A stretch of DNA of 64,000 nucleotides from Bacteroidales bacterium. GTDB lineage: Bacteria; Bacteroidota; Bacteroidia; Bacteroidales; P3. Both the position numbers and the translations under genes were made by a program. The notes below the pieces were generated by a model. That model worked only from the letters and a program-made list of their open reading frames with translations. It was not told where the DNA came from and searched no databases. The stretch covers positions 27,060 through 91,059 of the forward strand of contig JAFSYK010000064.1 of assembly GCA_017449975.1 (NCBI GenBank), written 5' to 3'. Below are positions 22,132 to 38,480 of this stretch, piece by piece; within the stretch, counting starts at the first letter, position 1; the number at the start of each line of letters is the position of its first letter.

Positions 22132-23136
22132 TTAAATGAAAAACAGACAAACGCCGCAAACGCTTATCATGGCGCCGATGACCTCACGGGTTGTCACCTT
22201 CTGGTGGAAAAGCCAGACGGAAGGTGCGATGATGAGTATGGGGGTGAGGGCGAAGAGTGTCTGCGCAATGCCTGTGCCGGTGTATTGCGTGGCGAGGAGC
22301 GACAGACTGACACCGACAAAGGGGCCGAACACCGTGGAGCCCAGTGCGCACCACATCGCTTTGCGGTCGCCGACGGCGTGGTGGAGTTGCTTGGCCCAGT
22401 CGCGGTGCGTCAGCATCAGCAGTGCCATAAATCCCACAAGACCCAGGATGGCGCGGATGAAGGTGGCGGCAAAGGGTACGCTCAGATACAGCGGCATGGG
22501 GATCCATGCACCACTGGCGGCAGCCGAAGCGTCAACCCCGGCGGCTTGCAGCGCGGCATCGTAGTGTACCAGTCCGTTCTTGCTCAGCACCAGACCCACA
22601 CCCTGACAGAGGCCTGCCATCACGGCGAAGAAGATTCCGCGAGGTGGTAGCGTGAGCTTGGGTGTTTTTCGTTCGTTCTCGTTTGCATTCTGTTCACTTT
22701 CGTTCACTCCTTTGGACAGGATAGAGAGGCAGATGCCCGACAGGGTGACCACCATGCCTACGATGGCGAGGGGCTTCATCTGCTCGCCCAGCAGCAGGCG
22801 ACCGGTGATGGCGGCGGCAGGGGCGGAGAGTGTCATGAAAAGCTGGCCGAAGCGTGACCCGATGATGATGTAACCCTTCATTAGGCAGTAGTCACCGATG
22901 ACATAGCCCACCAGACTCGACGCCAGCATCCACTTCCATGTTTCGCCGTCGGCATAGCGCGGCCAGGGCACACCCATCACGAGGAATAGCGTGACAGCAA
23001 GCAGCAGCAGTGACATCGTCATGCGCATGATGTTGAACGGCAGCGACCCCATATGCTTGGATCCGACCTCCGCCAGCAAAGCCGTGGCCGTCCACATCAC
23101 CGCCACCAATAAAGCAATAAACTCACCGAGAAACAT
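22132..23136 (-). CDS. DMT (EamA-like) family transporter
   Basis: About 10 TM segments arranged as two EamA-like halves. Confidence 0.8.
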   Translation of the reverse strand: MFLGEFIALLVAVMWTATALLAEVGSKHMGSLPFNIMRMTMSLLLLAVTLFLVMGVPWPRYADGETWKWMLASSLVGYVIGDYCLMKGYIIIGSRFGQLFMTLSAPAAAITGRLLLGEQMKPLAIVGMVVTLSGICLSILSKGVNESEQNANENERKTPKLTLPPRGIFFAVMAGLCQGVGLVLSKNGLVHYDAALQAAGVDASAAASGAWIPMPLYLSVPFAATFIRAILGLVGFMALLMLTHRDWAKQLHHAVGDRKAMWCALGSTVFGPFVGVSLSLLATQYTGTGIAQTLFALTPILIIAPSVWLFHQKVTTREVIGAMISVCGVCLFFI

Positions 23137-23266: not shown

Positions 23267-24556
23267 CTATAGTACCGCTTCTATAGCATATAGCGGATAG
23301 TTGGTCATCCATGACTGTTCGCGGTATGGTGCCATTGAGAAACGAACACCGTGCAATCCTTGGTTGGCTTCTATAAACATACGGAGGCTTTTAGATTGGA
23401 GATTGTCTTCAGCCTTCACCTCAATGGGAATAATCTTGCCGTCGTGTTGCATTAGAAAATCAATTTCTCCTCTGGAGTTGTCAGCCGACCAATAGTAGAT
23501 GCTGTTTTCTTTCGACAACTTTAATTGTTGGAATACATATTGTTCTGTCAAAGCTCCCCTGTAGTCGGAGAATAGTGTGCTTTCGGAGAGCAATGCGTTT
23601 GTAGAGAGTCCGCACATGGAAGCGAGCAGGCCCACATCAAGTAGGAACACTTTGAAGGCGGCAAAGTCCTCGTAGGCCGAAAGGGGCATCTGTCCTTTTT
23701 TCGCTCGGTTCACCTTGTATAGCAGACCCGCATCTCGCAACCATTCTATGGCCAGTTCGAAATTCTTGGCACGTGCACCTGCTTTGATAAATCCATAGAT
23801 GAATTTCTTGTTCTCTTTGGATAGCTGACCGCTGACACTGTTCCACACCATGCGCAGGCGAGGTACCTCTTCAATAGGAGCATGTTTTGAAAAGTCGCGG
23901 TCATACGAATCGAGTATTGCTTGTTGGAGCCGTCGAACCTCTTTCAGATCACCGTTGTCGGCAAACGATTGTACCACCTCGGGCATGCCACCAACATAAT
24001 AGTATTGACGCAGGAGCGATTCTAGTCTGGATGCCACGGTCTGTGTTGCATCCCATTGTTGCATCCTTAGGGGTTCCAAAAGATGTTCCTGCCCCATGGC
24101 GTCGACGAACTCAAAGAACGATAACGGGTAAAGATTTATGAAGTCCACTTTTCCTACAGGGAAACTGTCGTGTTGATGCGAAGCTATGCCCAGCAGCGAC
24201 CCTGCGGCCATGACGGGCAGGTGTGGCATTTTCTCGCAGAAATATTTCAGTGCGGTAATGCCGCGTGGTGCCTCTTGGATTTCGTCAAGTATGAGCAGTG
24301 TCTCATCCTCCACCTGCTTTCCAGTGGCCAGATATATCTCAAAAAGGATTCGTTTCATGTCGAAATCCTTCTCGAACAGTGACCTGAGGGCGGGGGTCTC
24401 CTCAAAATTGATATAGATATATTGGGGAAATGCCTCTTCGGCGAAAGTCTTCATAAGCCAAGTCTTTCCCACCTGTCTGGCTCCTTGTATCACGAGAGGT
24501 TTCCGTTTTTTACGCTGCTTCCAGTCGTATAGTTCTTCGATTTTTTGTCGTATCAT
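23267..24556 (-). CDS. ATPase of the AAA_14/DUF4143 family
   Basis: VIQGARQVGKTWL Walker A, LILDEIQ Walker B, C-terminal EIDFLM...IPIEVK restriction-endonuclease-like module. ATG at 24556. Confidence 0.85.
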   Translation of the reverse strand: MIRQKIEELYDWKQRKKRKPLVIQGARQVGKTWLMKTFAEEAFPQYIYINFEETPALRSLFEKDFDMKRILFEIYLATGKQVEDETLLILDEIQEAPRGITALKYFCEKMPHLPVMAAGSLLGIASHQHDSFPVGKVDFINLYPLSFFEFVDAMGQEHLLEPLRMQQWDATQTVASRLESLLRQYYYVGGMPEVVQSFADNGDLKEVRRLQQAILDSYDRDFSKHAPIEEVPRLRMVWNSVSGQLSKENKKFIYGFIKAGARAKNFELAIEWLRDAGLLYKVNRAKKGQMPLSAYEDFAAFKVFLLDVGLLASMCGLSTNALLSESTLFSDYRGALTEQYVFQQLKLSKENSIYYWSADNSRGEIDFLMQHDGKIIPIEVKAEDNLQSKSLRMFIEANQGLHGVRFSMAPYREQSWMTNYPLYAIEAVL

Positions 24557-24586
24557 GCTCTTATTGCCCTCCTTATTTATTCGCTG

Positions 24587-24594
24587 CAAAAATA
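24587..24594 (-). promoter_or_regulatory. -7 box TATTTTTG for the DUF4143 ATPase gene
   Basis: Reverse complement of caaaaata. Confidence 0.5.
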
Positions 24595-24606: not shown

Positions 24607-24694
24607 AAAACTCCGACAGAAAAGTGTATTTTTCACACAAAAACTCCGACTAAAAAGTGTATTGTATATACAAAAACTCCGACTAAAAAGTGTA
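24607..24694. repeat. three direct repeats AAAACTCCGAC(A/T)(G/A)AAAAGTGTA with 33-bp spacing
   Basis: Copies at 24607-24628, 24639-24661 and 24672-24694, immediately upstream of the -7 box. Confidence 0.9.
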
Positions 24695-24857
24695 AATTCA
24701 GATAGAAAGGTGACTTTCCCTAAAAAAGGTTGAAAGAATTGGGAAGGTTAAACTAAATGGGTTTACATAGTTGAGACCCTATCCCTAAACTGGTTTACAC
24801 CATCACAGTTTAGGTTTACATCTTTCGAGCGGCACGAGCCGCTGCCTTGGCAGTACC

Positions 24858-25166
24858 TCACTGCCAAGGAGAAGCAGCGGGCTTGAGAGAAAGTATCCTT
24901 TCAGGACGGGACGCTGAGTGTGAAAATAAAACCGTCACAAAGGATATTCGCACGACGTTATCCACTAATGTATTGTAAAAGTCAGTTGAAATAGGGGCAT
25001 CCTCGTTTGACAAGAAGGTTCTCCAGCCCTCCTCAATGAATGATTTGGCCTTTTGTGGCAACTCTTTTCCTTCATACACCATTGCCAGGTGCTGATATGC
25101 TAAAATTGTTTGATACGTCCAGTCTATTGCGCTGTATTCAACCATAGACCGGCGGCAAATATCCAA
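24858..25166 (-). CDS. hypothetical protein, possibly a TPR-like fragment
   Basis: ORF has only a TTG start. ILAYQHLAMVYEGKELPQKAKSFIEEG is TPR-like. Weak support. Confidence 0.3.
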   Translation of the reverse strand: MDICRRSMVEYSAIDWTYQTILAYQHLAMVYEGKELPQKAKSFIEEGWRTFLSNEDAPISTDFYNTLVDNVVRISFVTVLFSHSASRPERILSLKPAASPWQ

Positions 25167-25236: not shown

Positions 25237-25965
25237 TCATTGATTACAGAGACTTAGTGCATAACGGAGCTTCTCCTGTTCGCTTTTGTCTACATTCTTC
25301 TTCAAAGGTTCAAGCAGGCGTTTGGCTTTTTCAGGGTCTCGTTTTATGCCATAAGACCCCTTTGCATAGATATACCCCAGTGTATATGTCGCCTCCCAGT
25401 TGCCATTCTCCGAAGCCTTCGTCAGCCATTCAATGCCAGTATTTATTTCGTGTGTAACATGACTTACATCGATATTAAGCATACCCAGCCGATACTGGGC
25501 AGCTGCCACGCAAGTCGCTCCGTCCAGTGCTAGTGTATTCCATAACTCGTCAGAATATATAGGGCCAAGCATCCTCTTGAACCTGTCTTCGTCGTATTCG
25601 TGTTGGACGGTATTAAGATAGCTCATGTATGCCAATAATCTGTCTCGCATTTCGGAGCAATTCTCATAGCATAATCCCAATGCAAGCCACGAAGCAGTGC
25701 AACCAAGTTCAACACAACTGTGTAGATAGAGCGTTGCTTTGAAACCAGTACTATAGAATCCTATGGCATGATATGCCAGTATAAATCCTTGTTTGGCTGA
25801 TTCTTCAAACCAGTGCATTGCCGTCTCTTTGTCTTTTCCCACAAGGTGGTATCCATATTCGAATTGGCAGAGTGCATCCCCATTCTCGGCACCCTCCTTA
25901 AGTAGTTTGACCTTTTCCTCTTCCGAAGCTTGCTCGTATTTTGTCCAATCTATATTGTTTTCCAT
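25237..25965 (-). CDS. Sel1-like repeat protein
   Basis: Repeated modules of the form GDALCQFEYGYHL...AMHWFEESAKQG and NWEATYTLGYIYAKG...KAKRLLEP. Confidence 0.7.
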   Translation of the reverse strand: MENNIDWTKYEQASEEEKVKLLKEGAENGDALCQFEYGYHLVGKDKETAMHWFEESAKQGFILAYHAIGFYSTGFKATLYLHSCVELGCTASWLALGLCYENCSEMRDRLLAYMSYLNTVQHEYDEDRFKRMLGPIYSDELWNTLALDGATCVAAAQYRLGMLNIDVSHVTHEINTGIEWLTKASENGNWEATYTLGYIYAKGSYGIKRDPEKAKRLLEPLKKNVDKSEQEKLRYALSLCNQ

Positions 25966-25974
25966 ATAGTTTCT

Positions 25975-26865
25975 TTATTTTGATTCGAATGATGAATTGT
26001 GCATTTTGAACAGGTTGTAGTACGACCTCATGTTTTCAAGTTCATACCATTTTGCCGTTTGTACTGGTGTGGCATCAAGGTTGTATATCAATGCGTCAGG
26101 CAATGAGAGCAAGAAAGGTGAGTGGGTGGCAATGACAAGCTGGCAACGTCCTCTATGAGCAAGGCTGTATAGCTCGTGAGCCAGCACTTGTTGGGTTTCT
26201 GCCGATAGACTGTTCTCCGGCTCGTCTAACAAGACTAGAGACTCCTCTTCTATCTGTTCAACAAAGTACTTGAAGCCAGACTCGCCATTGCTCATTTCCG
26301 CATGTTTGCGATAATCCATAGTGCGTTTGATAAATTTTGACATAGTGAGAGACTTGGGAACGTGCTCCATTGCAAAATACTGTTGCGACACGTCTTCTAT
26401 CTGTACGTCCTTTTCAAGATTGCGCTGCCTAGTGGCAAGTATGTTATTGAAAACATCATCGCTGACAATTATCTTACCCCTGCGTATGGCTGATGGTGCA
26501 ATATACTGGTCGGTCAACTCATAGCCACCGTTACCCTGGCAGTAACTCTCAAAGAAAGGGCTGGTATTGAACAATGATAGTCTTTGCAGTTTCAGTTTTT
26601 GAGCAATAACATTCAGTATCGTAGTCTTGCCCGAAGCATTGCCACCATAGAATATGGTAATATCACCAAAGTCGATATGGGTGAAATAACGGTTGTAGAA
26701 AGTATTCCAAGGGTACCAACTTTGGTGAATTGTTCTGCTGTCAAAATCTAACTGAAAGTATATGTCAGGAATATCTTTGGGGATACCCTCTGGGTGTTTG
26801 GGTGGGGTAAAATAGTAGTCCACCCATGTATCCTTTGGCAGATTAAAAGATTTCAAATATACCAT
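25975..26865 (-). CDS. ABC-type (AAA_21-like) ATPase without a fused effector
   Basis: Walker A FYGGNASGKTT, Walker B/D-loop LVLLDEPENSLS, H-loop IATHSPFLL. ATG at 26865. Confidence 0.8.
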   Translation of the reverse strand: MVYLKSFNLPKDTWVDYYFTPPKHPEGIPKDIPDIYFQLDFDSRTIHQSWYPWNTFYNRYFTHIDFGDITIFYGGNASGKTTILNVIAQKLKLQRLSLFNTSPFFESYCQGNGGYELTDQYIAPSAIRRGKIIVSDDVFNNILATRQRNLEKDVQIEDVSQQYFAMEHVPKSLTMSKFIKRTMDYRKHAEMSNGESGFKYFVEQIEEESLVLLDEPENSLSAETQQVLAHELYSLAHRGRCQLVIATHSPFLLSLPDALIYNLDATPVQTAKWYELENMRSYYNLFKMHNSSFESK

Positions 26866-26877
26866 TACTTTTTTTTG

Positions 26878-26931
26878 CAAAGGTACACCTAATATAACCT
26901 CGATCAGAGATTATAGACAATTATAGAAAAA
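26878..26931 (-). promoter_or_regulatory. promoter module: TTTTTCTATAATTGTCTATAATC, 23-nt spacer, TACCTTTG
   Basis: Reverse complement read directly. The same architecture occurs at 32459-32513, and a weaker version at 31794-31849. Confidence 0.6.
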
Positions 26932-26945
26932 GTACCTTCTATTTA

Positions 26946-27404
26946 CTACGGCTCCCTATTATTGTCAGCAAGCCATTCCACGTATGCAATTACTTCGCCG
27001 ACAGTTGGTGATACCATTGCATGGGTTTCATTATCCGAGTCGTCATCTTCCGACTCTTCGTCTTGAACAGCTACGTTCTCATCGTCCTCCTCAACCCCAT
27101 AATAGTCATTTGCCACATCTTGTTCTGTGAGGAAAAGGTTTTCAACTTCAATAAAAATATCCAGCTCTTCTTCGAGCTTCATAATAAACTCGACTATATC
27201 CATTCCATCCATCCCCACTTCATCGTTAAGTCGATCAGTGAGAATATTGCCATCCCAGCCATCCAACTCTTTCAGCAGTCGTTTCACCACCTTTGCAGTT
27301 TCGGACTCGGAAGTTTTTTCTGTTGGTACTACTACACCCAGTTTAGATAGATATTCGCCCAAACTACCAACGCCATCGACGAATACTTCTTCTTTCATGT
27401 TCAT
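26946..27404 (-). CDS. acidic ACP-like protein lacking the phosphopantetheine serine
   Basis: DEVGMDGMDIVEFIMKLEEELDIFI aligns with the ACP motif DLGxDSLDxVELVMxLEEEF but has Gly in place of Ser. Also carries a long Asp/Glu insert. Confidence 0.5.
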   Translation of the reverse strand: MNMKEEVFVDGVGSLGEYLSKLGVVVPTEKTSESETAKVVKRLLKELDGWDGNILTDRLNDEVGMDGMDIVEFIMKLEEELDIFIEVENLFLTEQDVANDYYGVEEDDENVAVQDEESEDDDSDNETHAMVSPTVGEVIAYVEWLADNNREP

Positions 27405-27406
27405 TG

Positions 27407-27715
27407 TTATTTGTACTTTACTTTAATTACGGTTTCCTCTTTTGAACCCACCATTGTCGTAATCTCAACCCCATCCATTGGAATTTTCATATCAAGACCT
27501 TTCGTATTATTCAGAGTTATTTCCATCTCATCTACGTTGTTTTCTTTCCCTTGCTTGATCAGTTTCTCTGCAATTCTTGCCTGTTCTTTTGAACTATCTG
27601 AGCTCAGGATTTTTTCAACGACTTTTACTGCAAGATCAGCAAAAGGGTTGACACTAGTCAACACTTCTTTAGCCACCTTAAGGCCTTCTATTGTTGTTAA
27701 ATTATAGTGTTTCAT
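27407..27715 (-). CDS. hypothetical protein (102 aa)
   Basis: ORF is tightly packed, 2 nt from the next gene. No recognisable motif. Confidence 0.5.
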   Translation of the reverse strand: MKHYNLTTIEGLKVAKEVLTSVNPFADLAVKVVEKILSSDSSKEQARIAEKLIKQGKENNVDEMEITLNNTKGLDMKIPMDGVEITTMVGSKEETVIKVKYK

Positions 27716-27753
27716 GGTTGATTTTTTTTGTGATTAATATCTTCACGATGGCA

Positions 27754-29187
27754 TCAAAAATATTTTTCTATTTCTTTTGTTCGTTCTTCGGTTATTCCTA
27801 ACATATCGCGGAGACGATTGAGCAAACGGCGTTCCTTGTCGGATACTTGGTCGTTTTCACATGCCTCACGGTAGGCTTCGAGATACTCTTTTTCTTTGGA
27901 TTTCATAGAAGCATTTCCCTCTTCTGCTTGATTCTCTAATTCTTTTTCTTTAAGTTTCTTAACGATTTTTTTCTTTATTCTTTCGTTTTCCTCGTTTTTA
28001 AGACGTTCTTTTGATTCTTTCTTTTGAACAAGAGCATTCTTTAACAATTCAATTGTAAAAACTGCATTTGCTCCATGCTTTTGAGCTTCTGCCAACAGCA
28101 TTGACTGTATGGCAGTTTTTATTTCTCTTCCAGACAGACCATCTATCAAGTCACTAATTGCAAGATAATCTTCTTTTGAGAATTCTTTGTCTACAGGAAG
28201 TTTCTCTGGAATCATTGTTTCTAGTATTGCAGCACGTGCTTCTCTGTTTGGCAACTCAAATCTGATATGATTCAGTATTCTAGACTCAAATGCTCTGTCA
28301 AAATTCGTCACCAGATTTGTGGCGAATAGTACTACTCCAGTAAACTCTTCTAAATAAATAAGCATTTGGCTTCGTAGAGAGTTCAATGCCTGATCAGACC
28401 CCGTACTGACATTCTCAATACGTTTGCCTAAGAAAGAATCCGCTTCATCAAAAAACATTACAGCATCCGTTTCTTTTGCTGTTTCAAATGCTTTCTTCAA
28501 ATTTTTAGCGGCTTCTCCCACGTATTTTGATTCAATGTCAGCATAATTCAACGCCAACAATGGACGACCAAGTTCCGATGCAATTGCATGAGCACACATA
28601 CTTTTACCTGTCCCCGGTCCACCATAAAAATTCAAAATGCTCCTCGGATAGGGTTCAATCTTACCAAATCCCCAGTCTTCATATATTAACTTCTTGTTTT
28701 TTATTATTGATAAGGCAGTTAATATTTCCTCTTTTACAGAGTCGGAAATGATTAACTGGGAGAAGGTGTATCGTGGTTGAATTGGAATAAATGAAATGGA
28801 ATCTTTATTCTGTTCTTGTGGCTGTTCTTCATTATGTGGAGTCATGTGTTCTTGCTTTTTTATTTGAAAGGAGATTGCTATTTTCAACCGACTTTTATTA
28901 ATGAACGATGATATACTAATAGAGGATAGTTCATTTTTTAATTCTTCAATGAAAGAGTAGGATTTAGGAATTTCAAAATCAGCATTGGAAATAATGAATA
29001 CTTCAGAATCATCTAGTCCCCAGTATTCTTCAAGAGTATATCCAACAGAAAGCGACAAATGCTGGTATTCTTTTCTGTTTACCAACTGTCGAATCTTTTT
29101 TGAGCACTTCTCAACCTCTGCCGATAAAGCATCTTTTTGTTCAGATGTCAGTTGATGCTCTTTGTAGTTATATTCTATTGAAGCCAT
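27754..29187 (-). CDS. classical AAA+ ATPase (CDC48/FtsH-type module) with unique N-domain and coiled-coil C-tail
   Basis: Walker A GGPGTGKS, Walker B MFFDEADS, SRH-like ATNLVTNFDRAFESR. Confidence 0.9.
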   Translation of the reverse strand: MASIEYNYKEHQLTSEQKDALSAEVEKCSKKIRQLVNRKEYQHLSLSVGYTLEEYWGLDDSEVFIISNADFEIPKSYSFIEELKNELSSISISSFINKSRLKIAISFQIKKQEHMTPHNEEQPQEQNKDSISFIPIQPRYTFSQLIISDSVKEEILTALSIIKNKKLIYEDWGFGKIEPYPRSILNFYGGPGTGKSMCAHAIASELGRPLLALNYADIESKYVGEAAKNLKKAFETAKETDAVMFFDEADSFLGKRIENVSTGSDQALNSLRSQMLIYLEEFTGVVLFATNLVTNFDRAFESRILNHIRFELPNREARAAILETMIPEKLPVDKEFSKEDYLAISDLIDGLSGREIKTAIQSMLLAEAQKHGANAVFTIELLKNALVQKKESKERLKNEENERIKKKIVKKLKEKELENQAEEGNASMKSKEKEYLEAYREACENDQVSDKERRLLNRLRDMLGITEERTKEIEKYF

Positions 29188-29835
29188 CTAACAATATATG
29201 ATTTGACCTTTGTAAATATCTGAAGAGACCCCTTCTGATGAAGTTATTTCTTCTTTTGCAATCATCACATTATTGTTCCCGAAAATACCGACATTGACGG
29301 CATTCTTTTTCTTTTCCAATATTTGTATCTTCAATGCTTCAGGGCACTTTGTCTGTACACTGTTTTTAATTGAGAAAATATCAATGATAACATTGATAAT
29401 GTCCTTGAAAAATTGTTTTACTTCTTTCTCTAGCTCTTTCGCAGCTCGTTCTATGTTTTTTCGGGCAGCCCTTGTAGCTCTTTCAACTTTAGTAGTCAAC
29501 CATACTACAATAAACGCGATAAGACTGGCTAAAAGAAAAAATATCCAAAAAATGCATGTGAGATATTTTTCATCACCATATCTCCATACCGCCATTATAA
29601 AAGCCGCCCACACAAACGTCCAAAAAATGTATGATATTACGCTGCCACTTTCCTCCTCAATGATTAAATAGCCACCCATAATGGCAAAAAGAGAGAATGT
29701 TATAGCCCTAACAACAGATGGATAAAATACGGGTATTAGATAATTTCCAAAAATGAGTACCGAAATCCATAGGACTAGCGACGCCAGTCCTATAAATCCC
29801 AATATGCCACTCGGTTCTATTTTTTTTACTCCCAT
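29188..29835 (-). CDS. polytopic (about 4 TM) membrane protein with cytoplasmic tail
   Basis: Four hydrophobic segments. The stop codon abuts the ATPase start codon with 0-nt gap. Confidence 0.7.
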   Translation of the reverse strand: MGVKKIEPSGILGFIGLASLVLWISVLIFGNYLIPVFYPSVVRAITFSLFAIMGGYLIIEEESGSVISYIFWTFVWAAFIMAVWRYGDEKYLTCIFWIFFLLASLIAFIVVWLTTKVERATRAARKNIERAAKELEKEVKQFFKDIINVIIDIFSIKNSVQTKCPEALKIQILEKKKNAVNVGIFGNNNVMIAKEEITSSEGVSSDIYKGQIIYC

Positions 29836-29865
29836 TGTGTTTTGTTGTTTTTTTTGAAAAACTGC

Positions 29866-30261
29866 CTATGAAAGTACAATTAATTCTTCATTGCCAAATA
29901 CTTCTTTTATGCGTTCGTCAAGTTCCTTCACATACAGTATTTGTCCATGGGTTACCTTTTCATCAACCTCATTATAAACCCCTAAAACGATGGTTAAATA
30001 ACCCACTTTTCCTTCGGGGAAGCGTTTGTGGGTCTTTTTGACAAACTGTCCCATTGCTCCGTCTCTTGCAATAAATGGGACATCACTTCCTTTTTTCAGG
30101 TTTTTTGACTTAAAATAAGCCACTACATCGTTGAAATCAAGTGTTCCATCTATCACTTTAACGTTACTTGTCAGGAATTGACCAACTGACTTCTTTTTGT
30201 AACTATAATACGCAGCACCACCTATGGCTGCAATTCCAAGAATGATTGTTATTGTTTTCAT
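29866..30261 (-). CDS. paralog family member C (N-terminal TM anchor)
   Basis: C-terminal module VPFIA...VGYLTIVLGVYNEVDEKVT...FGNEELIVLS shared with 30267..30602 and 30611..31036. Confidence 0.6.
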   Translation of the reverse strand: MKTITIILGIAAIGGAAYYSYKKKSVGQFLTSNVKVIDGTLDFNDVVAYFKSKNLKKGSDVPFIARDGAMGQFVKKTHKRFPEGKVGYLTIVLGVYNEVDEKVTHGQILYVKELDERIKEVFGNEELIVLS

Positions 30262-30266
30262 GTTAA

Positions 30267-30602
30267 TTAACTCAATACTACTAATTCTTCTTGACCCAAA
30301 ACATTTCTGGTTTGGGCATCCAGACTGTCAGCCTCCACATATTCGGCAAATGTAATCTCATCGCTTACTTCATTGTATACGCCCTCAAATATTCCGACTT
30401 TTTTCACTGGTGCTGTCTTTAGTGCGTTTTTAAATGCCTCTTTGTTGGCAACAAAAGGAATGTCCTGACCTTGCGTTAATCCAAGAGACTTGAACCTCGC
30501 TACTACTTCTTTTGCAAAGTTCAGAATACCATTGATTACACGGCGAATAATATTCTTTATGTATTCAAACGCCTTTTTGATTAGTTCTAGTAATTTGTCC
30601 AT
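30267..30602 (-). CDS. paralog family member B
   Basis: IPFVA...VGIFEGVYNEVSDEIT...LGQEELVVLS. Confidence 0.6.
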   Translation of the reverse strand: MDKLLELIKKAFEYIKNIIRRVINGILNFAKEVVARFKSLGLTQGQDIPFVANKEAFKNALKTAPVKKVGIFEGVYNEVSDEITFAEYVEADSLDAQTRNVLGQEELVVLS

Positions 30603-30610
30603 AGAATTGG

Positions 30611-31036
30611 TTATTGAAGGATTATTAAATCGGTTTCACCAAATAGTTCTTCTACTTCTTTGCTCAAAGAATCTGCTTGGATTATGACGTACTTGTTAAT
30701 TGTTTCGTCAAGAAGTTCTCTGTCCTTACAATTCGCCAAATAGACAAAGCATTTACCATCTTTTTCAGCACGAAAAACCACAAATCCATTTGCACCAGAT
30801 ACAATGTTTTTCCTTGCCACTTGCAATAGTTCTGGCATGGTTAACGAGTCTACAGCCATAGCTGTTGTCGATTTTGAGGACAAAATATCCTTCGCAAACT
30901 TCTTAATTGTGGGAATCATTCCCTTTTTGATTTTTGGAAGAACTTCATCGATTTTCTTTTTTACAGTATCGAGTAATTCCTCATGCAATAGAGTTCTGAT
31001 GTAATCCATTGCACTTTCTAATACTTCTTCGTACAT
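30611..31036 (-). CDS. paralog family member A (more diverged)
   Basis: Ends in SLSKEVEELFGETDLIILQ, with the same C-terminal layout as the two downstream genes. Confidence 0.55.
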   Translation of the reverse strand: MYEEVLESAMDYIRTLLHEELLDTVKKKIDEVLPKIKKGMIPTIKKFAKDILSSKSTTAMAVDSLTMPELLQVARKNIVSGANGFVVFRAEKDGKCFVYLANCKDRELLDETINKYVIIQADSLSKEVEELFGETDLIILQ

Positions 31037-31069
31037 ATTATTGGGTTTTAGATGATTAGTTATTGCTTT

Positions 31070-31522
31070 TTAACGTAATGCATTTATTGCTTCTGCTATA
31101 GCATTGACTATAGCATTCTTTTGATTTTGAAGTTTTTTAGAATTGTTTGGAAAGAAAAATGAGGAAGGAATGTTTATTTTGGTATTTTGGGTATTTTGGA
31201 TTATTTCTAAATCTGAATTATTTGAAGAGATGTCTTGTATTTCTGTTGATTCTATGTAACATATAGATCCATTTTGGTGATAATACAAACCCTTGTTTGT
31301 TAACACGATTCCCTTCTGCTTACGATAATTCACAATAAAATAATTCAAAAGTTTTTTTCTGACTTTTTTATTTGGATTAGCCTCAATTAGGTCATCATAT
31401 CCAGGACTCCAAATGAGCCGAATTTTTTCATCAGGAGGGATTCCATATTCTGATTGAATTTTTCCAATTCCCATTTTAGAAATGTTGAAATTGGATTGAC
31501 TGATTATTACTTCTTTATTCAT
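31070..31522 (-). CDS. hypothetical protein (150 aa)
   Basis: ATG at 31522 preferred over the TTG at 31552. No confident motif. Confidence 0.5.
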   Translation of the reverse strand: MNKEVIISQSNFNISKMGIGKIQSEYGIPPDEKIRLIWSPGYDDLIEANPNKKVRKKLLNYFIVNYRKQKGIVLTNKGLYYHQNGSICYIESTEIQDISSNNSDLEIIQNTQNTKINIPSSFFFPNNSKKLQNQKNAIVNAIAEAINALR

Positions 31523-31544
31523 TATATATAATGTGATAGTTAAT

Positions 31545-31763
31545 TTATCCAATTCTTTGAACGTCCAAATATGCCATACTTAATGCGCCAGCCCTGCGGA
31601 TGTCGATGCCATAGATACGCATGAATGCATCGGCGACGGCTTGACCTCCGTTAGTGGTGACGGGGTTGGTGATGCTGTTGGTTACGACATCTACGCTCAT
31701 TCCCTTCTCTACGCGGATGCCACTGGTGAGCTTGCTGCTCTTGATGGTTACTCTGTATACCAT
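31545..31763 (-). CDS. small hypothetical protein (72 aa)
   Basis: MVYRVTIKSSKLTSGIRVEKGMSVDVV...GGQAVADAFMRIYGIDIRRAGAL. First gene downstream of the leader. Confidence 0.5.
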   Translation of the reverse strand: MVYRVTIKSSKLTSGIRVEKGMSVDVVTNSITNPVTTNGGQAVADAFMRIYGIDIRRAGALSMAYLDVQRIG

Positions 31764-31860
31764 AGTTTTATTTTTATAAGGTTTGTATTTTTGCAATATT
31801 ACTGATTCTTTGGTGCTCTTACCCCGATTATAGACAATTATAGTAAAAATCACACCTGTA

Positions 31861-32180
31861 CGGCAGGGTGGGGTGGTGCTCCTTTTTTCGCCCTTGAGTT
31901 CTCAGTAGGGCGGTTATTTATAAATACAAGGAAAGCATAGAACTCGTGTTGTCGTTTCTACGAACTGTGGGCATCGCCAAACGCCTCTCCCGAATAGAAA
32001 CTGAGAACCCTGTCCTATGCTTTACGCTATGTAGAGGCATAAAGCCAATACATACACGAAAAAGCAAAAGGCATCGTACCAGTGTCCTCAGGATGAAATT
32101 TGGCGAATTTACAGCTCGGACCGTACAAATGCTTTCCGCAATTGTTCGACGTACTCTCGTCGATTGTGGTTGCAAATATA
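31861..32180 (-). ncRNA. promoter (-7 box TATATTTG at 32173-32180) plus structured leader, copy A
   Basis: Reverse complement aligns along its length with 38187..38480. Shared blocks include CGACGAGAG, GTCGAACAAT, AAGCATTTGTA, TTCGCCAAATTT, GATGCCTTTTGCTTT, GGCGTTTGGCGATGCC and GAGTTCTATGCTTT. Confidence 0.5.
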
Positions 32181-32225: not shown

Positions 32226-32432
32226 TTATTTAAAGAATAGTTTGGCAATCCGGATTTCTATGGGGAACCATAGCAGCACATAGAGAATCCACCACCAGAA
32301 TGATATGCTGTCTCCGGCCGATATCATGTGGAAGGTTTTGATTGTGCAACTCACAACCGCCACAATGTATAGCAATAATAGTAGTATTATGCCAGTGAGG
32401 ATGCCACCAGTGCCTTCAGTGTTGTCTTCCAT
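32226..32432 (-). CDS. small two-TM membrane protein (68 aa)
   Basis: Two hydrophobic segments. Its own promoter module lies at 32459-32513. Confidence 0.35.
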   Translation of the reverse strand: MEDNTEGTGGILTGIILLLLLYIVAVVSCTIKTFHMISAGDSISFWWWILYVLLWFPIEIRIAKLFFK

Positions 32433-32458: not shown

Positions 32459-32513
32459 CAAAGGTACACCGATTGCCGTTGGCTTATGCCAATTATAGGC
32501 AATTATAGAAAAA
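32459..32513 (-). promoter_or_regulatory. promoter module: TTTTTCTATAATTGCCTATAAT, spacer, GGTGTACCTTTGCA
   Basis: Same architecture, and an identical 13-nt GGTGTACCTTTGC, as at 26878-26931. Confidence 0.55.
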
Positions 32514-32517
32514 AAAA

Positions 32518-33795
32518 CTACAACATGTCGGGCAGGGTGGGGTAGAGCTGGTGCAGGAGCAGCTTGAATTCGTAAGCGGCACTCTTGGCATAGCCACTGT
32601 CACGGTCTTTGACCCATTGCGGGCCGAAGAAGAATTGGCGCATTTTTCTGTAGGATCCCCTTTCGGTGAGACATCGGATGAGGTAGATGAGTTCGTATGA
32701 TTTGCCGTTCCGGCCTTTCCATTCAATGGGTACAATGCGCTCGGGGCGCATCTTGGACGAGAAACGGTAGGCGAACATCTGTTTCACCTGATTGTTGTTG
32801 TCGATATAGCCGTGCGCTGCCAAGGCGTTGATCAGCTCTGCAAAGCGTTCGGCTCCGTTTTTCACCACCTCGTATCGCAGGTTGAAGCAGTCGTCGCTGT
32901 TGGTCGATTCGTTTTTCAGCGAGAAATAGTCGGGCGGAAGGCTGAAGTCGTCTCCGTCTACTTCAACGGTCTGCAGCTGCGCTTTGGCTTCCGGCCTGCT
33001 CAGTATGGATTCGATGATTTTCCGTTCGCGAGGCTTGTAGTCTGTTATGTCGTCGGTGTAGAAGCTGCAGAGCCACAGGAATGTGTTTTGTGTGTTTTCG
33101 TATTGGGCGCGGTAGTAGGCTTTTACATCAGCATTGTACTCGTATTCGTTCCCGTATTCTTGGTTCAGGAGTTGCGTGCCTATCTGCGACATATTCTCTA
33201 TAGAGCGCAGCATCATTTGCCCTTCTTTGTTTACGTCGTTGGTATTGGTGGTGGCTATCGCATCCATGGCGGTAAAGAGCTCCTCAAGCGGCAGAGAGAA
33301 AACAGAAGAGGTGTCAGGCCACACAAGGCTGCAAAGTGCGCTGATTGCCCTTAAACCGCATGGTTTGTTGTGCAGCAGCGTGACAAACGCTTCTTTGTCG
33401 TTGCGGGCATAGCTGTCTTGCAGCTGGTTGAGGGTGGCGGAGTCGGCATCGATGGTGCCAATAAACTCTTTTGCCGAGTAGGGTTCCAGTGAGAGAAGGG
33501 TGTGGTAGATTTCTTCGGGTGATAGCGAGGTTTCTTGCTCTTTGGCCTCATCCAGAATTTCCTGCCACCATTCATGTATCATCCGGTTGTTGTTGATGAA
33601 CGAGAGTACGCGATGCAGGGGTGCGACGACGTTCATGATCAGTGCCTGCGATTCGCGGAAAATGGGTTCCAGCTCTGGATTCTCTTGGTCGGCCAACACT
33701 TCGGCCAGTACCTCATCGGGCAGGTGGTATTCACTTGCCTTCTCCAGACCCTTGTAGTATTGTTTCATCCGTTCCGCTTTGGAAATGTAGTTCAT
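32518..33795 (-). CDS. hypothetical protein (425 aa)
   Basis: Long ORF with ATG start. The -7 box TACATTTG lies at 33877-33884 on the minus strand. No recognisable motif. Confidence 0.7.
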   Translation of the reverse strand: MNYISKAERMKQYYKGLEKASEYHLPDEVLAEVLADQENPELEPIFRESQALIMNVVAPLHRVLSFINNNRMIHEWWQEILDEAKEQETSLSPEEIYHTLLSLEPYSAKEFIGTIDADSATLNQLQDSYARNDKEAFVTLLHNKPCGLRAISALCSLVWPDTSSVFSLPLEELFTAMDAIATTNTNDVNKEGQMMLRSIENMSQIGTQLLNQEYGNEYEYNADVKAYYRAQYENTQNTFLWLCSFYTDDITDYKPRERKIIESILSRPEAKAQLQTVEVDGDDFSLPPDYFSLKNESTNSDDCFNLRYEVVKNGAERFAELINALAAHGYIDNNNQVKQMFAYRFSSKMRPERIVPIEWKGRNGKSYELIYLIRCLTERGSYRKMRQFFFGPQWVKDRDSGYAKSAAYEFKLLLHQLYPTLPDML

Positions 33796-33924: not shown

Positions 33925-33955
33925 AAAATAGAAAGCCTCCCTTTTGGGGAGGCTT
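33925..33955 (-). terminator. terminator after tRNA-Glu
   Basis: aagcctccc / gggaggctt stem, followed on the minus strand by tctattttta. Confidence 0.65.
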
Positions 33956-34031
33956 GGTACCGCATATCAGAGTCGAACTGATGATCTTCTGCGTGAGAGG
34001 CAGATGTCCTGGACCACTAGACGAATGCGGC
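33955..34031 (-). tRNA. tRNA-Glu (anticodon CTC), CCA encoded
   Basis: Reverse complement is GCCGCATTCGTCTAGTGGTCCAGGACATCTGCCTCTCACGCAGAAGATCATCAGTTCGACTCTGATATGCGGTACCA. All four stems pair, and the D-arm TTCGTCTAG.GG.CCAGGACA is typical of tRNA-Glu. Confidence 0.85.
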
Positions 34032-38186: not shown

Positions 38187-38480
38187 TATCTTTGCGCATC
38201 GTTTCGACGAGAGAAAGTCGAACAATGCGAAGAAAAGCATTTGTATTGGTCCGCTCTTTAAAGTTCGCCAAATTTTAACCAAAGGACAACGATACTGATG
38301 CCTTTTGCTTTGGTCTATGTATTGGTATCATTCCACTACATAACGAAGCATAGGATAAGGTTCAAGTTAGTTTTACTTTGGGAAGGCGTTTGGCGATGCC
38401 TAAAGAGCGTAGAACAAACAACTGAGTTCTATGCTTTTTTTATTTAGTATAACGCCGACCACCGGGAACTCGGGTCGGCA
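38187..38480 (+). ncRNA. promoter (-7 box TATCTTTG at 38187-38194) plus structured leader, copy B
   Basis: Homologous to the reverse complement of 31861..32180. Terminal helix GAAAAGCAT/ATGCTTTTT and 3' hairpin GCCGACC/GGTCGGC both carry compensatory differences relative to copy A. Confidence 0.5.

Follow-up and report, generated by a model that had tools for sequence, protein, structure and literature searches.

Does a row of eleven co-oriented genes, with those of two ATPases among them, make up one system or several, and what might it do? The question is raised by a locus of a Bacteroidales bacterium represented by a metagenome-assembled genome (MAG) of 2.3 Mb in 103 contigs (GCA_017449975.1). 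We analysed a stretch of 64,000 nucleotides of its contig JAFSYK010000064.1 (positions 27,060 to 91,059), referred to as the window, in which eleven open reading frames (ORFs) on the minus strand span 31763-25237. A first-pass annotation of this DNA had described nine packed genes, followed by a second unit of an ABC-type ATPase and a Sel1-repeat protein, and the ORF list reproduces the coordinates and gaps that it gave. Five of the nine genes, in the order PAR1-PAR2-PAR3-MOD-AAA+, are a conserved, undescribed unit. This core is a real AAA+ partner system with a new small-protein fold, and it is set in a horizontally acquired, AT-rich mosaic island.

A conserved five-gene core

The genes of the row, like the gene p425 and the promoter-like words described below, are all located on the minus strand. 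The core opens with PAR1 (30611..31036; 141 aa), a soluble, diverged paralogue, which is followed by PAR2 (30267..30602; 111 aa), PAR3 (29866..30261; 131 aa) with its N-terminal membrane helix, and MOD, also labelled TM215 (29188..29835; 215 aa), in which hydropathy indicates four transmembrane (TM) segments. The fifth gene (27754..29187) encodes a classical-clade AAA+ ATPase of 477 aa. All of the first nine genes are separated by gaps of 0-38 nt, and the stop codon of the 215-aa membrane gene (29188-29190) directly adjoins the AAA+ start codon (29185-29187), as the first-pass annotation had noted. The first nine genes are probably transcribed together, and the ABC and Sel1 genes as a second unit.

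For the synteny set, the AAA+ and the 111-aa (PAR2) proteins were searched in public collections and the contexts of the matches were fetched. A scan with a peptide pattern taken from the PAR2 alignment, with one genome per species, yielded 22 loci from Prevotella merdae, Segatella, Onthomorpha, Paludibacteraceae and other Bacteroidales. The order PAR-PAR-PAR-MOD is found in all 22, the genes being nearly always directly adjacent, and an AAA+ orthologue with 43-56% identity is present in 21 of them; the remaining locus ends at a contig edge. The core was also found in eight metagenome loci (L001, L005, L034, L051, L053, L055, L057 and L083), two of which, L005 and L051, have the third PAR gene after MOD or after the ATPase gene. 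Over these 30 loci the median gaps within the core are 7, 13.5, 12 and 11 nt, PAR1 is the first core gene, and MOD stands before the AAA+ gene, in most cases a few bases away and immediately before it in 29 out of 30 (median gap 11 nt), with stop and start codons that often abut or overlap. The three genes that normally stand before MOD encode paralogues of the 141-, 111- and 131-aa proteins of the window, with lengths of about 140, 112 and 132 aa. The gene upstream of that for the ATPase has, in every context fetched, a product of approximately 90 aa that matches the final 60 or so residues of the four-TM protein.

The membrane-ATPase pair that had been suggested from the abutting codons alone is thus a recurrent arrangement. 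The proposed co-occurrence of AAA+ ATPase, four-TM protein and paralogues holds for the families, which stand together in 21 of the 22 loci; the four-TM form itself is replaced elsewhere by a single-pass MOD of 88-145 aa. A lack of synteny in other genomes had been named as a finding that would speak against the locus as a unit. Here the outcome is divided: the five core genes are syntenic, and the other genes are not fixed. The nine genes can therefore not be kept as one unit, since five are syntenic elsewhere while DUF6140, p160, p102 and a gene resembling acyl carrier proteins (ACPs) come, go or move.

All relatives found in our searches belong to the Bacteroidales, and AAA+ orthologues are present in 4 of 401 genomes of the order. 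The G+C content (GC) of the core lies below that of its flanks in 21 of 24 loci. Three records, L069, L075 and L082, are titled Bifidobacteriaceae, Clostridiales and Eggerthellaceae, and contain 2-24 Por_Secre_tail domains of the type IX secretion system. As these domains are typical of Bacteroidota, the taxonomic labels or the binning of the three records are doubtful. No paper describing the cassette came up in literature searches on IetA variants or on bacterial operons of the Vps4-like or Cdc48-like kind.

The small proteins

PAR1 and PAR3 match the A1 profile with E 2.9e-21 and 4.1e-29, respectively. PAR2, which was studied by means of the alignments A1 and A3 and for which 44 homologues were found, consists of an N-terminal helix and an alpha/beta module ending in ...LGQEELVVLS. 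Its AlphaFold2 (AF2) model (predicted local distance difference test, pLDDT, 85.2; predicted template modelling score, pTM, 0.78) has a five-stranded sheet and four helices. The C-terminus of the family, ...LG-E-LVVL-x, is nearly invariant and represents the last strand of the model. A structure search for each small protein had been recommended; Foldseek was run on the PAR2 model and gave no match in PDB or BFVD at E below 0.01. The PAR family has no Pfam entry either. A search of 1.84 billion cluster representatives with the PAR profile retrieved 365 proteins, of which 183 reach an E of 1e-10 or lower, and in almost all of the best 150 of these 365 the module ends at the C-terminus of the protein. 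The four partners of the ATPase thus form a family of approximately 365 sequence clusters.

Almost all orthologues of PAR3 and MOD start with a hydrophobic helix, and positive residues follow the anchor helices. In PAR3 this is a KKK stretch, which by the positive-inside rule would place the PAR3 module in the cytoplasm. In the window, MOD (alignment A2) combines four hydrophobic segments and a charged helix with a conserved module of about 60 aa at the C-terminus. MOD and PAR have the motif AFK...K-VGIF...(D/E)I in common, and some proteins match both profiles. The C-terminal module of MOD is probably a fourth, distant and abbreviated PAR paralogue.

The AAA+ ATPase

The ATPase matches the Pfam family AAA (PF00004) with E 5.8e-26. 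Among 120 homologues, conservation reaches at least 95% for Walker A (GGPGTGKS), for pore loop 1 (KYVGE), for Walker B (FFDEAD) and for the second region of homology (ATNLVTNFDRAFESR); three of these motifs, Walker A, Walker B and the second region of homology, had been reported as intact in the first-pass annotation. A single Arg of the usual Arg-finger pair is evident. With Walker A and B, an aromatic pore loop and the second region of homology, the protein belongs to the classical AAA clade, and its best PDB matches by sequence are VAT, p97 and Cdc48. The ATPase is probably a substrate-threading unfoldase, given that its Walker A and B motifs, its pore loop (KYVG) and its second region of homology are all intact.

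Relatives of the ATPase are numerous in public collections, with lengths of 430-450 aa and identities of 45-60%. The architecture consists of a variable alpha/beta N-domain (residues 1-110), a disordered polar linker, the AAA module, and a lineage-specific C-terminal tail (approximately 440-477), the last 36 residues being an addition of this lineage. Residues 1-130 are barely conserved among homologues. The AF2 model of the N-domain (pLDDT 81) shows the order beta-alpha-beta-beta-alpha-beta (E4-7, H15-36, E44-54, E63-67, H76-89, E99-109), for which Foldseek returned no PDB match at E <0.3. The idea that the N-domain is a fifth PAR paralogue was dropped, as hhalign against the PAR family gave a probability of 0.3%. 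As a side observation, the tail (27754-27900, residues ~430-477; DQVSDKERRLLNRLRDMLGITEERTKEIEKYF) resembles a motif that is twice repeated in a 360-aa 4Fe-4S protein (L030:8721-9803), which is encoded beside two DUF6140 genes.

The best match of the ATPase in defence libraries is IetA of PADLOC (E 2.5e-31, with a model that has no curated cut-off). IetAS comprises the AAA+ ATPase IetA and the subtilisin-like protease IetS, and acts as a plasmid-stabilising toxin-antitoxin and as an anti-phage system. The NCBIfam model NF042959 (IteA_antiphage) scores 95 bits against a cut-off of 510 (E 5e-27), and the CdvC model 86 bits against a cut-off of 650. The PADLOC run, one of the proposed checks, found no described system that covers the locus. 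The first-pass statement that the architecture matches nothing that can be named still stands: the IetA and IteA matches lie far under the family cut-off, and a protease partner is missing.

Mosaic structure and horizontal transfer

The whole genome has a GC of approximately 55%. Within the window, GC is 0.35-0.38 at 27-32 kb, 0.42-0.43 at 25-27 kb and 0.51-0.58 in the core flanks. The low-GC tract extends from about 23.2 to 33.9 kb. One border is marked by the gene of an EamA transporter (22132-23136), where a DUF4143 ATPase gene is also located, the other by tRNA-Glu (33955-34031) and yebC. In this island we distinguish at least three independently assorting cassettes: a head made up of p425 and DUF6140, the five-gene core, and the ABC and Sel1 pair. 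The genes p160, p102 and that of a serine-less ACP-like protein are loose accessories between them.

The borders of these cassettes are visible in blastn comparisons. The records L047-L050 match 31849-27941 at 96.5% identity, which is a block of 3.9 kb. In these records the identity breaks at 27941, within the 3' end of the ATPase gene, and resumes at 27412-26869 with 88.7%. For ABC and Sel1, the block shared with L057 and the one shared with L058 each start at 26932; for DUF6140, the blocks of L047-L050, L057 and L058 all start at 31848-31874. L058 carries p425-like, DUF6140, ABC and Sel1 genes at the same yebC-adjacent site, with no AAA+ cassette. Between L047 and this genome, identity is just 77-82% in the housekeeping flank (RNase R) but 96.5% in the cassette, which directly indicates a recent horizontal transfer. 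Together with the composition and the sporadic distribution, this difference in identity is in good agreement with the horizontal origin that had been proposed from composition and spacer words.

A promoter-like word, CTATAATTGCCTATAAT (CTATAATTG(T/C)CTATAAT; also given as CTATAATTGYCTATAAT), occurs three times on the minus strand, at 26910, 31827 and 32492, where 0.03 copies are expected in the window. Copy 1 (26910..26926) lies upstream of the ABC ATPase gene and forms the 5' border of the ABC and Sel1 module; copy 2 (31827..31843) lies upstream of DUF6140, at the 5' border of the 96.5%-identity block; copy 3 (32492..32508) lies upstream of a 68-aa membrane ORF (32226-32432). Each copy is followed after approximately 25-30 nt by a TAnnTTTG box, and the word is also present upstream of the ABC gene in L058. 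All three copies sit at cassette junctions. We read the word as a putative shared promoter or operator at which cassettes are exchanged.

Copy 3 and the 68-aa ORF, which has two TM segments, are part of a region of about 640 bp (32493-31849) that lies between p425 and the promoter word of DUF6140 and is absent from L047-L050. Its portion 31861-32180 recurs, inverted and with 75-77% complementarity, in front of the srf operon (38187-38480). The insertion may be a mobile leader or promoter element.

These comparisons bear on the view that the whole eleven-gene stretch is one integrated defence system, in which a nine-gene operon works together with the ABC ATPase and a Sel1 sensor. All genes are co-oriented and tightly spaced, L057 holds p425, DUF6140, the core, a p160-like gene, ABC and Sel1 in one row, and the word common to the three units could make them one regulon. 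We nevertheless regard such a system as very unlikely, since L058 and L060 carry the ABC and Sel1 pair with no AAA+ cassette, DNA identity breaks at the cassette borders, and L047 has unrelated genes in place of p102 and ABC. Moreover, none of the 22 genome loci with the core contains a homologue of the ABC ATPase (ABC301), the Sel1 protein (Sel242), the ACP-like protein (ACP152), p160, p102 or p425. A mosaic of separate cassettes is the reading that we follow here.

Alternatively, the genes could be left over from, or carried as cargo by, a prophage, plasmid or integrative element and have no function of their own in the cell. The AT-rich composition, the adjoining tRNA-Glu and an rve transposase upstream in L047 point in this direction, as do the match of the ATPase to phrog_3757 (E 2.4e-50) and two phage records that match the AAA module at approximately 40% identity. 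Against it stand intact frames throughout and the absence of PAR2 relatives from 50,697 phage records, 2.9 million IMG/VR contigs and 72,556 plasmids. Furthermore, the genes scanned at 22.1-35.4 kb contain no integrase domain, and a search for the 26-nt 3' end of tRNA-Glu, with up to three mismatches, found a single copy in the window and hence no repeat. A classical tRNA-targeted island was rejected for these reasons, namely the lack of an integrase and of an att-like repeat. A phage origin of the small proteins was rejected as well, because it is the generic AAA module alone that matches phages. Intact frames, together with a gene order and tight spacing that are kept over 43-97% protein identity, indicate purifying selection. 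We consider mere cargo highly improbable and retain a mosaic island with a selected core.

The ABC ATPase and Sel1 pair

The second unit consists of the ABC-type ATPase (25975..26880; 301 aa) and a Sel1-repeat protein (25237..25965; 242 aa; Sel1 E 1.8e-15), which is encoded downstream as its partner. According to Pfam the ATPase belongs to AAA_21/AAA_15 and has no extra domain, so that the description as an ABC-type ATPase with no fused nuclease is confirmed. In PADLOC it resembles PtuA (E 7.3e-17) and AriA (E 1.9e-16), mainly in the C-terminal signature and Walker B region; the NCBIfam model for PtuA gives 24.6 bits against a cut-off of 500.

Homologues of the ATPase with 86%, 81% and 48% identity are found in L057, L058 and L060, each adjoining a Sel1 protein. 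In L057 and L058 the Sel1 homologues (54% and 45% identity) follow the ABC gene; in L060 a Sel1 protein of 540 aa is encoded upstream of it. The pair accompanies the core in L057 and occurs with no core in L058, there at the yebC-adjacent site as in the window. Fusion proteins are also known from our searches, namely P0193 (ATPase-Sel1) and P0266 (ATPase-TPR). Recurrence apart from the AAA+ cassette and recurrence as fusions make the pair a real independent unit, which agrees with the second unit with its own promoter module seen in the first-pass annotation.

Head, accessory genes and flanking features

The gene p425 (32518..33795; 425 aa) lies outside the row of eleven genes that had been annotated at first, and it travels with DUF6140, which it precedes in related islands. 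Homologues with 41-52% identity are located directly upstream of DUF6140 in L047, L057 and L058, and p425 is thus far more diverged (about 50% identity) than the neighbouring block of 96% identity. It belongs to no known family and has no match in Pfam, NCBIfam, PADLOC or among PDB sequences.

DUF6140 (31545..31763; 72 aa from ATG) is an accessory "operon head". It matches PF19637 with E 1.9e-34 and 117.9 bits, above the gathering threshold of 27, and is a single-copy gene in this genome. Within the order it is found in 14 of 401 genomes, and in one of these 14 it adjoins an orthologue of the ATPase. It lies upstream of the core in seven of the 22 loci, downstream in two, and is absent from the remainder. 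Elsewhere DUF6140 heads operons with a Mrr-type nuclease, with three dynamin-like GTPases, with a bacterial-PH and a 537-aa protein, or with a TPR-PP-binding protein. In the DUF6140 loci (L029-L042, L058 and L060) an unannotated gene of 370-550 aa often precedes it. DUF6140 may be a regulator or a marker of cassette-exchange sites; a literature search found no paper that mentions it.

The next gene, p160 (31070..31552), is an accessory outside the core, is present in the closest relatives only (93% identity) and has no Pfam match. Its start is probably the ATG at 31522 (150 aa), because the 93%-identical homologue starts there. A homologue with 27% identity follows the AAA+ gene in L057. The orphan accessory gene p102 (27407..27715) has no match in Pfam or other profile libraries and no homologue in any locus fetched, and in L047 its position is held by an unrelated 264-aa gene.

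The last of the nine genes (26946..27404) encodes an accessory protein of a putative ACP fold with an acidic insert. Its match to PP-binding (PF00550) is weak, with 21.8 bits against a cut-off of 20.8 over residues 39-91, and NCBIfam ACP models give 19-20 bits against cut-offs of 66-106. The phosphopantetheine Ser of the DSL motif is replaced by Gly, so that GMDGMD in the window and GMDGLD in L047 stand in place of GxDSLD. L047 has an 87%-identical copy beside a different Sel1 protein. In L037 (8566-10062), beside DUF6140, a TPR protein is fused to a Ser-containing PP-binding domain, which keeps GADSLD. This fusion and the location of serine-less ACP-like genes beside Sel1 genes in the window and in L047 suggest a functional link of the ACP fold with TPR and Sel1 proteins. 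ARAGORN reported a "tRNA-???" at 27126-27218, which is inside the ACP-like gene, has no Rfam support and was treated as a false positive. DUF6140, p160, p102 and the ACP-like gene are movable accessories.

Beyond the Sel1 gene, a minus-strand ORF of 102 aa (24858-25166) with no family match lies before the DUF4143 ATPase gene and may be the remnant of a repeat protein. The flanking DUF4143/AAA_14 ATPase (23267-24589) corresponds to the PADLOC candidate PDC-S01 (E 1e-174). Three direct repeats of 33 bp (24607-24705) are located directly upstream of its gene. An ATPase of the same DUF4143/AAA_14 type flanks the cassette in L005 and L053, too.

Proposed role of the core

How could the five core proteins act together? 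From the domain type and the gene order, we suggest that MOD and PAR3 would be anchored in the cytoplasmic membrane by their N-terminal helices, and their modules would point into the cytoplasm. Joined by the soluble PAR1 and PAR2, they could make up a hetero-oligomer built from one common alpha/beta module, the conserved last strand of which is the C-terminus. A hexameric AAA+ ATPase may be recruited to this assembly through its fast-evolving N-domain, and its KYVG pore loops would then thread the PAR and MOD proteins at the expense of ATP, leading to their disassembly, extraction or reset. To give an example, the ATPase might restrain or activate the small membrane proteins, as IetA restrains IetS. 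A dedicated unfoldase with membrane-tethered paralogues would give AAA+ biology a new class of partners.

What such a machine serves is a guess, most likely a function at the membrane in stress or conflict. We favour this role on four grounds: the mobility of the cassette, IetA as its nearest library match, the conflict-type neighbours and the Ser/Thr kinases found nearby. The neighbours in question are a WYL-WCX regulator, HipA, Fic and DUF1016 in some loci, and the PDC-S01 candidate in the window. A Ser/Thr kinase gene lies next to the core in L053 (4116-5501), L055 (10198-11643) and L083, and about 6 kb away in L005 (1-821). In L083 (3670-7936) the genes after the core, which have the same orientation, code for a kinase, a vWA protein, a PP2C phosphatase and a protein of 311 aa with a PAR module at its end; two DUF6140 genes come next. 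This arrangement may be a phospho-regulated variant. The triad of kinase, vWA and PP2C was not counted as TerY-P: the vWA and PP2C proteins have no PADLOC match, and the kinase matches the generic models PD-T4-6 and mad6.

As a whole, a mosaic island that carries a membrane-anchored PAR/MOD/AAA+ core with a stress or conflict role is given a probability of about 0.5. Several observations weigh against it. A Pfam census of 132 neighbours is mainly of housekeeping type, the recurrent conflict-type families being just WYL (3), Pkinase (2) and AAA_14 (2), so that an enrichment in defence islands is not supported. The locus holds no toxin, nuclease or protease, and no effector enzyme. In the AF2 model of PAR2 the C-terminal strand lies packed within the sheet, and its conservation may therefore be structural instead of marking a recognition tag. 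Finally, the relationship of MOD to PAR is suggestive at most by hhalign (E 0.0012, probability 19%). The evidence for a role in defence is accordingly weak.

A more specific form of the conflict role is a so far unrecognised type of membrane-anchored AAA+ machine, in which four paralogues of a new alpha/beta fold assemble on the inner membrane and are loaded, reset or dismantled by the unfoldase, with a change of membrane integrity as the outcome in abortive infection or conflict. We put this forward tentatively, with the odds rather on the other side. If true, it would be a new effector principle, and not a variant of IetAS or ESCRT.

Irrespective of its role, gut and rumen Bacteroidales (Prevotella, Segatella, Onthomorpha and Paludibacteraceae) carry a conserved, recently exchanged cassette in which the putative protein-unfolding motor is the one recognisable part. 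Should the conflict reading be true, a new membrane-acting immune module would be at hand in a clinically and agriculturally important phylum. The locus further illustrates how accessory islands of Bacteroidales are assembled, with cassettes apparently swapped at a shared promoter-like word and DUF6140 as the recurrent head of unrelated cargo.

Comparison with known systems

The ABC and Sel1 pair resembles PARIS (AriA/AriB) and Septu (PtuA/PtuB) in being a two-gene module, and its AAA_15/AAA_21 ABC ATPase is a probable relative of AriA and PtuA. It differs in the partner, which is a Sel1-repeat protein, sometimes fused to the ATPase, and not a nuclease of the Toprim/DUF4435 (AriB) or HNH (PtuB) type. 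With Msp1/ATAD1 and with FtsH and HflK/C the core has in common a classical AAA+ ring expected at the cytoplasmic face of the membrane and small membrane partners. In contrast to these, the anchor would be provided in trans by MOD and PAR3, and there is neither a protease domain nor an SPFH partner.

The likeness to IetAS consists in a classical-type AAA+ ATPase, a small mobile operon and a partner which the ATPase may restrain. This raises the possibility of an IetAS-like toxin-antitoxin or abortive infection system, in which one or more of the small membrane proteins (PAR3, MOD) would harm the membrane. As a continuous antitoxin, the AAA+ ATPase would extract or unfold them, until a phage interferes with the ATPase and the toxicity is set free. 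IetA was reported as the antitoxin of the IetS protease (PMC13069673), and in the core the two genes for membrane-anchored partners are located directly upstream of the ATPase gene. The mobile, AT-rich and sporadic nature of the cassette and the WYL-WCX, HipA or Fic neighbours of some loci would fit, as does the rank of IetA as best defence-library match. However, the genes scanned at 22.1-35.4 kb encode no peptidase domain, and among the 132 neighbours there is no recurrent peptidase family and no IetS-type protease. The ATPase lies far below the IteA cut-off and has another N-domain, and it is accompanied by a new family of small proteins, four in number, of which at least two carry a membrane anchor. 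Most loci are embedded among housekeeping genes, and no copy of the cassette turned up in the collections of phages, IMG/VR contigs and plasmids, which often contain defence cassettes. A toxin-antitoxin of this kind is thus unlikely. The cassette is not a member of IetAS; by analogy, its working mode may be similar.

Vps4/CdvC with ESCRT-III provides the other comparison, since here, too, the gene of a classical-clade AAA+ ATPase that has the aromatic pore loop adjoins those of several small paralogues expected to act at a membrane. On this basis the core could be a machine for envelope maintenance or membrane remodelling, an analogue and not a homologue of ESCRT-III/Vps4 or PspA, in which the paralogues polymerise on the inner membrane and the ATPase recycles them; it would serve stress tolerance and not a conflict with phages. 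It would be in line with best matches that include Vps4, CdvC and Cdc48, with several paralogous partners of which at least two are membrane-anchored, with the housekeeping surroundings of the loci, and with the dynamin-like and other membrane-associated genes that recur near DUF6140 and in the window. On the other hand, the N-domain is the beta-alpha-beta-beta-alpha-beta sandwich described above and not the three-helix bundle of MIT, and the partners are alpha/beta proteins instead of helical hairpins, with no Snf7 or PspA match in a Pfam scan of the small proteins. The score for CdvC falls far short of its cut-off, and the cassette is a rare mobile element (approximately 1% of the species of the order) that was recently transferred, which is unusual for a maintenance or core function. 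We therefore judge such a machine to be quite improbable. For the membrane-anchored PAR/MOD/AAA+ core with a stress or conflict role, the analogy with ESCRT, that is, an unfoldase working on small paralogues at a membrane, would still be the closest functional picture.

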